Positions 57,001-64,000 of a DNA stretch of 64,000 nucleotides are shown piece by piece (within the stretch, counting starts at the first letter, position 1; every line of letters begins with the position of its first letter). A program made the position numbers. Source of the DNA: an uncultured delta proteobacterium (GTDB taxonomy: Bacteria > Myxococcota_A > Polyangia > Polyangiales > Polyangiaceae); contig CAWHDJ010000018.1 in the NCBI GenBank assembly GCA_963827955.1, positions 1,117,297 through 1,181,296 on the forward strand. Reading direction: 5' to 3'.

Positions 57001-60000
57001 CGAACGGAGGGCGGGAAAACGGGAGAGTCAGGTCGACTAAACGGGGGATTGGCGCTGGAAGTCAAGCACCATCCGGAAACTCCAGGGGCCGGCGCGTGCC
57101 CCGGGGACCGACCCGGGGACCGAGCCGGCGCGTGCCGGGGGACGGAGGTTGCGGCGCGCGGGCGGGTTTGTTACGCGCCCCCTGGATGGATCGCTCCCGC
57201 CGGCTCTTCGTGATCCCTGCGCTCTCGGCGCTCGCCCTGGCCATCGGCTGCGCCGGTCCGCGGTTCGCGGCCCCGAATCGAGGGCGTCCCCATTTGCCAG
57301 GACTTCACCCTGGGGCACACCAAGATGATCGGAGGCCTGCGCTACCCGGTGCGCATGCGCGTGCTCGACGGCAAGACCGTGGTCTTCCAGACCACGATCC
57401 TGGGCCTCCGCAGCGCCGACGAGTCGGTGAGCACGTACATCGCCGACGACAACGCGAAGTACAAGGTCGAGTGGTCGCAGTGCGGCAACGAGCACGCGCC
57501 CCGCTCCGTCGCCGGAGAGGAGCAGGAGGGCAAGGCACGCGACAAGGGGCACGAGCGCACCGAGACCGAGGGCCTCGCGTACGTGTGCGGGGAGTCGAAG
57601 GTCTACGCGACCACGGCGCTCGAGACGAAGAAGGGCGACCGCTCCTCGCACCTCATCCACTTCACGCCCCCTCCGAACCCCGAGTGCTGGGCGTCCGAGC
57701 CGGCCAAGCCCGCCGCGGCCGCTCCCGATGCGGGCGCTCCCGATGCCGCCGCGGCTCCGGCGCCTGCGATTGCGGAAGATGCAGGGGCGAGTGGCGCGGC
57801 AGCCCCCGCGGCGAGCGACGCGGGCCCTGCCGCGAGCGACGCCGGCGCGGCGGCGCCCCCCGACGCGGGCGCGAAGCACTAGCTCACCGAGCGCGATCCA
57901 CGCGATAGAACCCCGGGCTCACGAGGCTGGCCCAGGAAGCTCTGGAGAAGCGCGTTCCCCGGCGCGTCTCCCTCTCAATCCGATCTCCCATGGTCCCGCG
58001 CGGATCCCGGCCGAGCCGGCCCCTCCGGCCCCTCCGGCACCGCGACGTCGCTCTCGTCTCCGTCGTGTGTGCTGGAGGGATTGGTTCTCACGCCGGGCGC
58101 CGTTTTGTGGGACGTTGTGGGACAGGACGAGGTGGACCCACCCGAGGCGAGCGTCGACCTGGGCAACGCTAGCGGTGACGGGAGCAACGCGAGCGGTGAC
58201 GGGAGCAACGCGAGCGGTGACGGGAGCAACGCGAGCGGGGAGGCAGGCGGCGCGAGCAGCGGCCGGCCGACGCGAGCGGTGGCCGGGCCGGCGCGAGGGG
58301 GGGCCTGCCCGGCGCGAGAGGGGCGAGGGTCGAGGCGAGCGTCGGCCAGGGGGGCGCGCGCGGGGGGTTGGCCGGGGCGAGGAGGGAGGTGGGCGGCGCG
58401 AGCAGGGAGGGGGGCGGCGCGAGGGTCGGGCTGGGCGAGGCGAGCGGCGGCCTGGGCGGGGCGAGGGGGGAGCTGGTCGGGGCGAGCGTCGGGGTGCCCG
58501 GCGCGAGCGGTGCGCGGTCGTGGCGAGCGATGGGCGGCCGGAGGTGAGCGATGGGTGGCTCGGGGCGAGCGTCGGGTGGCTCGGGGCGAGGGGGAGGGCC
58601 CGGAACGCGACGAGGCGGGTGGGTGGAGGGGGCGCCGCCACTTCCTGCGCGAGACGGCGCTCCAGCGCGTCGTGCGCGCGGCGGCCCTCGACGCCGAGCG
58701 GTCGAAGCGGGTCGGGGGCCACGCGCTCGGGTGCTCGTTCGCGACGCACCTGCTGGAGGCGGGCTACGACATCCGGACGATCCAGGAGCTGCTCGGGTAC
58801 CGCGACGTGAGCACGACCATGATGTACACGCACGTGCTGAACCGCGGCGGGCGGGGGGTGACGAGCCCGCTGGACGGGATTGTGCGGCCACGGAGGTAGG
58901 GCTCGGAGTCGGGCGGGCCCGACCGCGGGATGCCCGGGCGCGAGAGAGATTCAAGGCGGGGTTCAAGGAAAGGCGCCCCACGCTTCTCCAGAGCCTCCTG
59001 GGCCAGCCTCTGAGATCCTGACGCGGGCGTCCCCCGTGACTGACCGTCCCAGCGTCCCGTGGGCGTGGCCGTGGCCGGCTTCTCCCGTGCCCCGGATCCG
59101 GAGTCGGGGCACGGGCAGATTGGCCACGGCCACGGCCACGCCCACGGGGAGAGGCACGGCCTCCGGTCAATCTTTCCCGGACAGGAGGCAACGGGAAATG
59201 ACCGGGAAACCAAAGGGCCACGCCGCGCTTGTCAGGATCTCAGAGCCTCTCACGCCCGGGGCTCCGGTCCGCGGGCTGACGCCCGTGGGTTCCATCGTTG
59301 GAACGGCGTCATGCGCCATTCCGATCCCGTCATCGACGAGATACGCGCCGCCCGCGATGCCATCGTCAAAGAGGCGGAATACGATGGTTCCCAAAACCAT
59401 GGCGCTCGCACCAATTACCATGCCACGGGCTCCTCTGCCCCGTCCGGGCGACGCAACCGGCGCGTCGAGATCGTGGTCCAGCCCGTGGGTGTGATGCCCC
59501 GGTGACGCCCGACCCTGCGACGACCTCGAGGGCCTCGCGTGCTGCGCGCGACGCTCCTCGAGCGTCGCCGCAGCGCCCGGTCACTCCCCCCGGTTGCCGG
59601 TCGGCAGGGGCGTCAGGTTCACGATCGCCGTCACCAGCTCGTGGACATCGAAGGGCTTGGCGAAGAACGCGTCGGCGCCCAGCTCGCTCGCCAGCATCCG
59701 CGTTTGCAGGTCGGGATAGGCGGTCATCAGCACGACCGCCGTGCTCAGGTTGGCGTGCCGCAGCGCGGCGAGGATCTCGAGCCCCGTGAACCCCGGCATC
59801 CGGACGTCGGTGACGATGATGTCGGGCGGGCGCCGCACGCCGTCGACGAACGGCTCGACGAAGACCTCGGAGAGGAGATCGGAGCCGTCGCACGCTTCCG
59901 TGATCTCGAAGCCGAAGCCGCGGAGGGCGCACGCGCAGAGCTTCAGGATGTCCGGATCGTCGTCGGCCAGGAGGATGCGCGGCGGCTGCTCCGTCGCGAC

Positions 60001-63000: not shown

Positions 63001-64000
63001 ACGTCGCCCCCGGTGCCGACCTCGGGCGAGAGCACGAGCGCCCGGAGGCCCGCCGCGGCCAGCGTCGGGCGGATCGCGGCGGCCACCTTCGGCACGGTGA
63101 TCACCGCGGCCGCGCGGGTGTACTCGACCAGGTAGGCGAGGTCGGCGGCGGGCGCCTCGGGGTTGCCCATGGCGACGACCGCGCCCATGTGCAGCGTCGC
63201 GAAGAAGGCCCAGGCGAAGGCCGGCGTGTCGTGGAGCACGATGAGCACGCGCTCCTCGCGCCGGACGCCGGCGGCGGCGAGGAACCCGGCGAGCGCCCGG
63301 GTCCGCTCGGCGACGTCGGCGTACGTGTACCGGCGGTCCCCGAAGAGGATCGCGTCCTTGTCTCCGAGCCCCTCCGCGAGGCGGTCGAAGAGGAAGTAGT
63401 CGGCCAGGTTCAGCGCGTTCGGGAAGGTGGGCAGCGGGAGCATGGCGCCGCCGTTCGCGTACCACGATCGGGCGGACGCGGAGCCCCCAATCGCCGCGCC
63501 CGCTCCCCCGCGGCCCCGCGGTTCACCGCCCCCAACGTACGCTGCGTTGCGTCGCTCTATGGCCGCGGCCCCAGCCTCCGCCGCAGCTCGTCGATCTTCG
63601 CCCGCCGATCCTGGCCGGGCGGCGCGTAGCGCTCCGCCTTCTCGAACGCGGAGATCGCGCCCGGGAGGTCGTTCTGCCGCTCCAGGTCTCCCCCGAGGTA
63701 CCTGTAGAAGTCGAAGCGGACGTTGGACGCGCTCACCGCCGCGAGGCAAGCCACCGCGGCCGCCGCGCCCGCGAAGCCGTTGCGCACGCCGGAGAGGTTG
63801 TCGCGGCGCGCGATCGCGGCGGCTGCCGCGATCAGGATCGCCGCCGCGGCGCACGCGGCGGCCCACGGGGCGCCGGGCAGGTCGAGCGCCGTGCCGGCGA
63901 ACGCCCACGCGCTCGCGCCCGTCGAGGCGGCGAGGGCGACCGCCTCCCTGCGATCGAGCCGCCCTCGGGCCTCCGCGCCGAGGCGCCGCGCTGGCCACGA

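Follow-up and report, generated by a model that had tools for sequence, protein, structure and literature searches.

A benzoate-CoA ligase-family, creatininase-fold and PaaA-like diiron gene trio in Polyangia: likely entry steps of an anthranilate-CoA pathway variant

Three intact minus-strand genes in the window (the whole 64-kb stretch of DNA analysed here), encoding a CoA ligase, a creatininase-fold hydrolase and a small diiron protein, form an operon-like unit. The balance of evidence tips, by a modest amount, toward a single operon that most likely carries out the first reactions of an aerobic, CoA-dependent route for an amino-aromatic acid, anthranilate (2-aminobenzoate) being the probable one. 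The trio is probably the upper part of a novel form of the anthranilate-CoA pathway, one with a diiron enzyme in the usual place of a flavin monooxygenase. Three forms are known of the aerobic 'hybrid' pathways in which CoA thioesters are dearomatised: Paa, Box and a flavoprotein-based aminobenzoyl-CoA route, work on the last having centred on Azoarcus evansii. The gene list of the 2-aminobenzoyl-CoA (abm) cluster was reportedly provided by Schuhle et al. in 2001.

The gene trio and its boundaries

The ligase gene (61755-63443, minus strand, 562 aa, ATG start) is separated by a 12-nt gap from the gene of a creatininase-fold binuclear-metal amidohydrolase (60978-61742, minus strand, 254 aa), whose stop codon overlaps, in an ATGA, the start of the gene of a single-subunit PaaA-like diiron-carboxylate protein (60226-60981, minus strand, 251 aa). 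These coordinates and junctions agree with the sequence-only reading, which had described three intact minus-strand genes with just such an overlap and gap. The sequence GGGAGAGGAAG lies 5' of the diiron gene, and the GC3 of the three genes (0.97-0.98) is that of the neighbouring genes. The reading frame of the diiron gene continues without a stop across the ligase gene as well.

Upstream of the ligase lies an intergenic region of 113 nt (63444-63556, minus strand), presumed to be the promoter region, in which no sigma-70 consensus was found, and beyond it a same-strand ORF ends at 63557. At one related locus, L001, the ligase gene has a divergent upstream neighbour, so that the operon begins at the ligase there. 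The same genes in the same order were encountered on many independent contigs, which puts the arrangement far beyond chance and bears out the expectation that the three genes would be co-conserved in other genomes.

Downstream of the diiron gene, after a spacer of 159 nt, is a gene for a stand-alone, CheY-like receiver-domain protein (59581-60066, minus strand, 161 aa). It matched PF00072 (4e-22, 78.9 bits), has no output domain, and its receiver residues D35/D36, D86, T114 and K136 could be read from the translation. A CheY-like regulator does follow the trio, as first read, but it is not a conserved member: regulators near other diiron genes are at other positions and only 28-34% identical, a similarity of a generic kind, and there is no response regulator 3' of the trio in L001 or L096. 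The regulator gene is probably adjacent to the module and not part of it. Folding of 60067-60228 gave a perfect 9-bp G+C hairpin, CCGGGCCCC-GGAGA-GGGGCCCGG (60122-60144, minus strand), which may, tentatively, mark the operon end; the suggestion is a weak one because the hairpin has no T-tract, the spacer as a whole does not exceed shuffled sequence in stability (z = -1.1), and a consensus terminator scan of the spacer found nothing. A terminator between the diiron and regulator genes was rejected on the same grounds, the G+C hairpin without a T-tract being all that was there.

The encoded proteins

The ligase exceeded the cut-off of TIGR02262 (425.3 bits against 375.25), as did the ligases of two related loci (L004, 405 bits; L066, 549 bits), in keeping with its original assignment to the benzoate-CoA ligase family. 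It retains intact ANL core motifs for adenylation and thioesterification (TSGSTGRPK, YDGIGSAE, KTGD, GRADD and PKNDRGK). Its best solved relatives are the benzoate-CoA ligases 2v7b (3e-107) and BadA (4eat), to which it is slightly nearer than to the solved anthranilate-CoA ligase 4wv3 (7e-87), and homologues are present in Minicystis rosea (82% identity) and Sorangium (73-77%).

The 251-aa protein matched PF05138 (PaaA_PaaC) with 57 bits against a cut-off of 28.5, and its AF2 model (pLDDT 95) was structurally closest to the PaaA catalytic subunit (TM 0.75-0.77), followed by the Sulfolobus solfataricus protein SSO1313 (4mud) and then PaaC. Residues E28, E58, H61, D107, E135 and H138 align with all six metal ligands of PaaA and are invariant in 38 homologues, so that the E..H pairs on which the diiron assignment had been staked are present as E58xxH61 and E135xxH138, together with E28 and D107. 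Of the original label "PaaA/PaaC-like", the PaaA half has held, through best fold match and ligands, and the PaaC half has not, PaaC chains ranking after the PaaA chains with E values of only ~1e-4 and no matching ligands. An AurF-like identity was likewise set aside, AurF and CmlI structures being absent among the top 50 structural matches. SSO1313 is the best PDB sequence match (1e-8) and shares with the window protein a short (~235 aa), single-chain PaaA-like ferritin fold, although the two are only ~20% identical. To our knowledge SSO1313 is a structural-genomics protein without a characterised function, and for this reason it is no help in assigning one here. From its fold and ligands, the 251-aa protein is regarded as a putative aryl-CoA oxygenase.

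That the protein might simply be a divergent member of a canonical PaaABCDE or BoxAB epoxidase is suggested by the Pfam match, by the nearness of its fold to PaaA, and by JGI, which names homologues '1,2-phenylacetyl-CoA epoxidase catalytic subunit'. With PaaABC(D)E it does have in common a ferritin-like diiron fold, all six ligand positions, and a CoA ligase to supply aryl-CoA, but its identity to PaaA is ~20%, it has 251 aa in place of roughly 310, and against the PaaA equivalog TIGR02156 it scored 44.9 bits where 280 are needed. No second ferritin-like (PaaC-like) gene was found by tblastn with the diiron protein in the window or in 85 loci, the conserved neighbours include no PaaB, PaaD or PaaE reductase family, and the ligase is of the benzoate type, not the PaaK type. 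The Box system is no closer: a BoxB-type protein has ~475 aa and is accompanied by a reductase, BoxA, and a ring hydrolase, BoxC, but neither BoxA- nor BoxC-like neighbours were found, and BoxB itself was matched only with a sequence E of 0.24 and a TM, normalised to BoxB, of 0.37-0.38. Canonical membership is effectively refuted by these comparisons, and the early remark that the small diiron protein and its creatininase partner fit neither Paa nor Box has stood up well.

The hydrolase passed PF02633 (Creatininase) with 2.5e-45 and 155 bits (cut-off 31.3) and keeps the metal-binding and catalytic residues (E33, H35, D44, H119, H164 and E169, invariant in 26-27 cluster-linked homologues), as expected for the creatininase-fold enzyme it had been taken for. 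It lies below the cut-offs of all named subfamilies, namely MftE (TIGR03964, 96.2 of 172 bits), creatininase (TIGR04448, 65.5 of 235) and IolN (NF041098, 40.6 of 245), and in a neighbour-joining tree the cluster-linked homologues formed one clade with MftE as its sister. In its creatininase fold and in every metal-binding and catalytic residue the window hydrolase agrees with the mycofactocin peptidyl-dipeptidase MftE and with creatinine amidohydrolase, but no mftABCD genes are present and its conserved partner is an aryl-CoA ligase. The creatininase family also includes a ring-opening C-C hydrolase, IolN.

A larger cluster and its relatives

Genomes were scanned for the diiron gene with an 8-sequence alignment and the best 80 genome matches were considered. 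The neighbourhood survey comprised 81 loci with the diiron gene, in which ORF starts were chosen by GC3 minus GC2 and partners were counted on the same strand and identified with Pfam and NCBIfam. The loci span Myxococcota (Polyangia), Planctomycetota, Acidobacteriota and Methylomirabilota. An OYE-like protein was the most frequent partner (34 of 81), followed by the ligase, SDR and RidA (30 each), ACAD (28), ECH (27), the creatininase-fold protein (26, or about 35 by tblastn) and MarR (22), while 25 loci had no partner at all. At five loci (that of the window, L001, L008, L010 and L096) the trio stands alone between unrelated flanks; in other Polyangia an orthologous trio is embedded in a cluster with ECH, ACAD, SDR, RidA and MarR. 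Judged by these gene neighbourhoods, the trio is a piece separated from a larger conserved cluster (SDR, RidA, MarR, ECH, ACAD and OYE-like), none of whose genes occurs within the 64-kb window.

The composition of this cluster varies among lineages. The gene before the diiron gene encodes a 2Fe-2S ferredoxin in Planctomycetota, the one before the ligase gene a flavin reductase in Acidobacteriota, and rokubacterial clusters have another ligase type and no creatininase-fold gene. A planctomycetal locus, L044, has the order ECH-ACAD-Fd-DIIRON-OYE-RsmE-LIG-kynA-kynU. In Sorangium the order is SDR...OYE-LIG-CRE and the nearest 10 kb lack a diiron gene, Minicystis rosea keeps only LIG-CRE, and neither genus is among the 80 best genome matches for the diiron protein; the pathway may therefore not need this protein, or may use a copy encoded elsewhere. 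The diiron family had no match in any of the 72,556 PLSDB plasmids, and creatininase-fold matches on them were at most ~32-34% identical and in unrelated contexts.

A self-contained, Box-like minimal module, in which the ligase would activate the acid, the diiron protein would epoxidise the ring, the creatininase-fold enzyme would open it, and the product would pass to beta-oxidation, could be read from the five loci at which the trio stands alone, from the ATGA overlap of the hydrolase and diiron genes, which suggests translational coupling, and from Polyangium species that have a CRE-DIIRON pair without the ligase. IolN would be a ring-opening precedent, albeit one to which the window hydrolase is only weakly matched, its nearest characterised relative being a peptidase, MftE. 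The LIG-CRE pair persists without a diiron gene in Sorangium and M. rosea, which ties the hydrolase to the ligase step and not to the product of an oxygenase, and complete clusters carry an ECH of a kind capable of ring opening; together these make the minimal module improbable.

The preferred reading, an anthranilate-CoA pathway variant, draws on a second type of cluster. The chemistry of 2-aminobenzoyl-CoA monooxygenase/reductase (ACMR) has been documented (PMC4539516, PMC3534580). On plasmids of Thalassospira, Aminobacter and Parasedimentitalea, the gene order is ACMR-SDR-(MarR)-ECH-ACAD-ligase/thioesterase-RidA. Ligase-linked SDR, MarR, ECH, ACAD and RidA genes are found likewise in loci related to that of the window (L004, L015, L017, L022, L023, L095 and acidobacterial loci), and between L004 and Thalassospira the identities are 42% for SDR, 47% for RidA, 34% for MarR, 51% for ECH and 47% for ACAD, with the ECH of both types passing the same equivalog, NF006107. 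With the abm cluster of A. evansii and other ACMR-type clusters, the diiron clusters have in common a benzoate-CoA ligase-family ligase, collinear SDR, MarR, ECH, ACAD and RidA genes, an OYE-type ene-reductase function and, in some cases, a thioesterase. They differ in that the FAD-monooxygenase half of ACMR is gone (this N-terminal half had no match in 85 loci or the window) and a PaaA-like diiron protein is there instead, in that a creatininase-fold hydrolase has been added, and in that the OYE-like protein (484 aa, with a TMADH-type Cys motif, C-x2-C-x2-C-x11-C) stands alone and is ~30% identical to the C-terminal half of the fused ACMR (PRK08255). Conversely, neither the diiron nor the creatininase-fold gene had a match in the two ACMR-type loci searched (L086 and L087). 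The window itself differs further from ACMR-type clusters in carrying the ligase, hydrolase and diiron genes only. The homology of the larger cluster to the ACMR type means that its nearest logic is that of the anthranilate-CoA pathway, and not Paa or Box. From the initial comparison with benzoyl-CoA and phenylacetyl-CoA epoxidases, a CoA ligase feeding a diiron oxygenase is retained as the best reading, whereas Paa or Box as the nearest pathway is not. No description of the cluster came out of literature searches that paired PaaA, anthranilate or benzoate-CoA ligase with creatininase, or aminobenzoyl-CoA with diiron enzymes.

It was the retention of RidA, a member of an enamine/imine deaminase family, throughout both cluster types, together with kynA and kynU inside one cluster of each (L044 on the diiron side, where the link comes from this one locus, and Thalassospira on the ACMR side), that pointed to an amino-substituted acid derived from tryptophan, and by this context the ligase substrate is likely to be anthranilate. 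An identical architecture and mechanism acting on benzoate, salicylate, 3- or 4-aminobenzoate or hydroxybenzoate would accord with the characterised members of the ligase family, which take benzoate and 4-hydroxybenzoate as well as 2-aminobenzoate, with the benzoate-CoA ligases at the head of the solved matches, and with the NCBI name of the ACMR family in the alphaproteobacterial clusters, 'bifunctional salicylyl-CoA 5-hydroxylase/oxidoreductase'. Since RidA and the kyn genes argue for an amino group, we regard such a substrate as unlikely, though it is the most serious of the alternatives.

A proposed pathway

In the anthranilate reading, the creatininase-fold enzyme, as the companion of the ligase, would hydrolyse amides in a metal-dependent manner and, as a low-confidence guess, release the aromatic acid from a precursor of the N-acyl, formyl or lactam type. 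The ligase would then make the aryl-CoA thioester (its family is established, its substrate deduced), and the 251-aa protein, as a single-subunit PaaA-type diiron oxygenase, would oxygenate the ring of the aryl-CoA, thereby taking over the job of the FAD-monooxygenase half of ACMR in Azoarcus-type clusters. No electron donor for the diiron centre is encoded at the window locus. In the complete clusters of related genomes, reduction of the oxygenated ring would fall to the OYE-like protein (presumably FMN/[4Fe-4S]) and deamination of the enamine to RidA; ECH, ACAD and SDR would take the CoA esters through further processing and ring opening, with MarR as the regulator. Given their absence from the 64-kb window, these downstream genes must be elsewhere in the genome or missing.

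A bolder version of this reading, which we consider a real possibility while placing it somewhat short of an even chance, is that diiron aryl-CoA ring oxygenases have, besides PaaABCE and BoxAB, a third class founded by the single-subunit, PaaA-like 251-aa protein, that with the OYE-like reductase this protein replaces ACMR, and that the creatininase-fold enzyme has a new amidohydrolase function in the metabolism of aromatic amines, the whole being an anthranilate/tryptophan catabolic route widespread among little-cultured lineages of soil and groundwater (Polyangia, Planctomycetota, Acidobacteriota and Methylomirabilota). If true, a ring-hydroxylating flavoenzyme would have undergone non-orthologous replacement by a PaaA-type enzyme, and a minimal, single-subunit member would be added to the aryl-CoA oxygenases. 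A role would also be provided for the ~1000 homologues (at least 73% identical) that would be mis-annotated at present as 'phenylacetyl-CoA epoxidase catalytic subunit', and there would be an indication of how anthranilate derived from tryptophan is consumed by abundant soil lineages such as Acidobacteriota, Polyangia and Planctomycetota.

The Polyangia are prolific producers of secondary metabolites, and in the window genome the trio is apart from catabolic genes, both of which would suit a biosynthetic tailoring cassette that supplies a myxobacterial secondary metabolite with a modified aryl-CoA as its starter unit. This is a very unlikely role for the trio: no PKS, NRPS or other biosynthetic genes are near it in the window or at the trio-only loci, other Polyangia have the orthologous trio inside a catabolic-looking cluster, and members of the family keep 56-88% identity across several phyla.

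The ligase, hydrolase and diiron genes of the window

The sequence-only reading had proposed an operon for an aryl-acid CoA ligase, a creatininase-fold hydrolase and a diiron protein, followed by a CheY-like regulator, and its gene coordinates and family assignments held. All four genes lie on the minus strand in DNA of ~72% G+C. The stop of the ligase gene (61755-63443, 562 aa) is separated by 12 nt from the start of the hydrolase gene (60978-61742, 254 aa), whose own stop overlaps the start of the diiron gene (60226-60981, 251 aa) in an ATGA; GGGAGAGGAAG stands ahead of the diiron start, and a 159-nt spacer leads from the diiron stop to the gene of the receiver-domain protein (59581-60066, 161 aa). 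All ANL core motifs are present in the ligase, which scored 425 bits on the benzoate-CoA ligase model TIGR02262 (cut-off 375) and whose closest solved relatives are benzoate-CoA ligases and one anthranilate-CoA ligase. The Pfam matches were Creatininase for the hydrolase (2.5e-45), PaaA_PaaC for the diiron protein (57 bits) and Response_reg for the regulator (4e-22). By its ligase homologues (82% identity to Minicystis rosea, 73-77% to Sorangium) the source organism belongs in the Polyangia near Minicystis. When identical genome pairs were compared, conservation of the diiron protein equalled or exceeded that of the ligase and hydrolase (identities to loci L001/L004/L005 of 88/78/76%, against 88/70/64% for the ligase and 79/68/57% for the hydrolase), and its gene has a GC2 of 0.37, unusually low for the host genome.

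In the receiver protein the canonical residues for phospho-acceptance are in place. Around other diiron genes, response regulators were only 28-34% identical to it and placed differently, and none follows the three genes in the closest relatives, L001 and L096; the regulator is treated here as a neighbour and not as a member of the module. The spacer ahead of it folds unexceptionally; it contains a perfect 9-bp GC hairpin that lacks a T-tract. What looks like an integrase remnant (58069-58899, plus strand) lies some 680 nt past the regulator gene; there a tyrosine recombinase is reduced to its C-terminal ~65 residues (PF00589, 52.6 bits), and G+C-rich tandem repeats (58163-58590; period 21 nt, also 42, 63 and 84 nt) occupy the place of its N-terminal part. 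Further along, at 53247-56983 on the minus strand, an MMPL/RND-type transporter (982 aa; PF03176 and a sterol-sensing domain) and a LolA-like protein (263 aa), with genes overlapping by 4 nt, make up what looks like an export pair for lipids or lipoproteins that has no relation to the operon. No PKS or NRPS genes were found near the operon in the window.

A larger cluster in several phyla

The diiron gene was used to scan one genome per GTDB species, and the 80 best loci, with diiron genes 56-83% identical, came from Polyangia and other Myxococcota, Planctomycetota, Rokubacteria/Methylomirabilota, Acidobacteriota (Vicinamibacteria and Blastocatellia) and one Calditrichota MAG. Genes were called with a GC3-based caller and clustered by blastp, with family names taken from Pfam and NCBIfam. 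Among same-strand partners of the diiron gene the commonest, at 34 of 81 loci, was an OYE-like Oxidored_FMN protein of ~484 aa, with a C-terminal C-x2-C-x2-C-x11-C motif that is presumably of the TMADH/FadH type. The ligase, an SDR and a RidA protein were each found at 30 of the 81, an acyl-CoA dehydrogenase (ACAD) at 28, an enoyl-CoA hydratase (ECH) at 27, the creatininase-fold gene at 26 (~35 by tblastn) and a MarR regulator at 22; 25 loci had no partner at all. A lack of co-conservation, one of the observations that the sequence-only reading had named as refuting it, was thus not seen: a same-strand gene set recurs in other genomes, and the three genes turned out to be one piece of a larger cluster that is itself conserved. 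The SDR, RidA, MarR, ECH, ACAD and OYE-like families were not found anywhere in the 64-kb window, and the three genes likewise occur without the other cluster genes in L001, L096, L008 and L010.

The order in several Polyangia is SDR-RidA-MarR-ECH-ACAD-OYE-LIG-CRE-DIIRON (LIG, ligase; CRE, hydrolase), and in Acidobacteriota SDR-RidA-MarR-ECH-ACAD-DIIRON-u157-OYE ... FlavRed-LIG-CRE. Rarer partners include, in Planctomycetota, a thioredoxin-like 2Fe-2S ferredoxin whose gene immediately precedes the diiron gene and, in Acidobacteriota, a 4HBT thioesterase and the flavin reductase whose gene immediately precedes that of the ligase. The u157 gene, always between the diiron and OYE-like genes in Acidobacteriota (e.g., L052, 10750-11223, and 14 other loci), encodes a very acidic protein (~157 aa) that matched nothing in Pfam or NCBIfam and may act on the oxygenase as an effector or coupling protein. 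A compact Rokubacteria arrangement, DIIRON-SDR-RidA-LIG-OYE, was found in L024, L029, L033 and L043 (Rokubacteria/Methylomirabilota).

A diiron protein as the proposed stand-in for a flavin monooxygenase

An AlphaFold model of the diiron protein, built on 38 homologues, had a mean pLDDT of 95, and its best PDB matches were chains of the PaaA catalytic subunit (TM 0.75-0.77, ~20% identity), followed by the uncharacterised SSO1313 (4mud) and then PaaC, with aldehyde-deformylating oxygenase and BoxB lower. HMMER alignment to PaaA placed the ligand positions at E28, E58, H61, D107, E135 and H138, which we take to be the PaaA ligands of the PaaAC structure papers, and all six were invariant in the 38-sequence alignment (numbered one lower, the initiator Met being omitted). 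The E..H pairs, whose absence would have refuted the sequence-only reading, are thus present, and of the PaaC-, PaaA- and AurF-like possibilities the protein is PaaA-like and neither of the others. A true PaaA was rejected (44.9 bits against a 280-bit cut-off), no second ferritin-like gene was detected near the diiron gene in the window or the 85 loci searched, and no PaaB, PaaD, PaaE or Box component was present among its neighbours, in agreement with the view that the module is neither Paa nor Box. At least 73% identity to the diiron protein was shared by ~1000 database proteins, a single 50%-identity cluster, with a more distant halo of 310 cluster representatives at E < 1e-3.

A tblastn search of annotated plasmids with the cluster ECH led to alphaproteobacterial loci centred on a flavoprotein of the 2-aminobenzoyl-CoA monooxygenase/reductase (ACMR) type, in which an FAD monooxygenase and an OYE-type reductase are fused; this flavoprotein, annotated as 'bifunctional salicylyl-CoA 5-hydroxylase/oxidoreductase', scored 1298 bits on PRK08255. 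The Thalassospira marina cluster reads ACMR-SDR-MarR-ECH-ACAD-ligase-kynU-kynA-thioesterase-RidA, and Aminobacter and Parasedimentitalea have the same core. The counterparts of its SDR, RidA, MarR, ECH and ACAD in the Polyangia locus L004 were 42, 47, 34, 51 and 47% identical, respectively, and the ECHs of diiron-type and ACMR-type clusters alike passed the equivalog model NF006107. The abm operon of Azoarcus evansii (Schuhle and colleagues, 2001) reportedly encodes the ligase and ACMR together with three enzymes of beta-oxidation, a regulator of the MarR family, an ABC binding protein and a protein of the YjgF/RidA type. The product of ACMR is degraded further as CoA esters (PMC4539516, PMC3534580).

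Within this multi-phylum cluster the three genes are the upper part. Gene for gene the cluster runs parallel to the 2-aminobenzoyl-CoA pathway but differs in its oxygenase and reductase: where the fused flavoprotein normally stands, it has a PaaA-like diiron protein of one subunit and, encoded apart, an OYE-like reductase. The OYE-like protein is only ~30% identical to the C-terminal half of ACMR, and the N-terminal half had no tblastn match in the window or any of the 85 loci; conversely, L086 and L087, the two loci of ACMR type that were searched, gave no match to the diiron or creatininase-fold gene. Three things argue that the diiron protein would replace the monooxygenase half of ACMR: this mutual exclusivity, the place of its gene within the operon (ACAD-DIIRON-OYE, preceded by a ferredoxin in Planctomycetota) and its PaaA-type active site. 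In two cultured relatives, Sorangium CP012672 (L095, 4556-12498) and Minicystis rosea CP016211 (L094, 10001-12464), the order is SDR-RidA-MarR-ECH-ACAD-OYE-LIG-CRE and LIG-CRE alone, respectively, and neither has a diiron gene inside 10 kb of these genes; neither genus was among the 80 best matches to the diiron gene, which may be absent from them, or divergent and unlinked. Linkage to the cluster is strong, not obligatory, and for that reason the replacement is something we infer. The specific mechanism, in which the genes would perform the entry steps of an anthranilate-CoA route with a diiron oxygenase, is put forward with moderate confidence, since the chemistry is putative and the window has only three of the ~ten genes. 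No description of a diiron/OYE-like arrangement in place of ACMR was found in the literature searched. The general idea of an uncharacterised module for aryl-acid activation and oxygenation was right, and its placement in a multi-phylum cluster is what our analysis adds.

Substrate and the creatininase-fold hydrolase

Tryptophan 2,3-dioxygenase and kynureninase are encoded in the Thalassospira ACMR cluster, and their genes recur in one diiron-type cluster, L044 (Planctomycetales MAG, 5068-12395; ECH-ACAD-ferredoxin-DIIRON-OYE-RsmE-LIG-kynA-kynU, with a 2Fe-2S ferredoxin and an RsmE-like methyltransferase), in which the ligase stop overlaps the kynA start. RidA proteins are an enamine/imine deaminase family. 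Together, the kynA/kynU genes and the conserved RidA point to tryptophan-derived anthranilate as the probable substrate. As this is evidence from gene context, for the diiron type from a single locus, and the ligase family also includes benzoate and hydroxybenzoate ligases, another substituted benzoate is kept as the main rival to anthranilate.

In the hydrolase, E33, H35, D44, H119, H164 and E169 (metal ligands and catalytic histidine) were invariant in 26-27 cluster-linked homologues, which formed one clade in a neighbour-joining tree with MftE as sister and an Ensifer creatininase-family protein as outgroup; its scores fell under the MftE, creatininase and IolN cut-offs. Its gene is immediately downstream of a benzoate-type ligase wherever both were called, including genomes without an adjacent diiron gene, and is absent from the rokubacterial clusters, whose ligase is 46-47% identical to that of Thalassospira and only 31-34% to that of the window, a distribution suggesting that the presence of the hydrolase depends on the type of ligase. 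We infer a putative metal-dependent amide hydrolase acting beside the ligase step, where its substrate may be an N-formyl, N-acyl or lactam precursor and its product the free acid. L044 has no recognisable formamidase and no creatininase-fold gene. Alternatively, the hydrolase would open the ring after oxygenation; of all parts of the model its role, including the favoured one beside the ligase, is the least secure. In Polyangium spp. (L025, L026, L031, L032 and L034) a different conserved set has the order FHA-domain protein, 2OG-Fe(II) oxygenase, creatininase-fold protein, diiron protein, 145-aa protein and CarboxypepD_reg-repeat protein; there the creatininase-fold gene is paired with the diiron gene and the oxygenase and has no ligase nearby.
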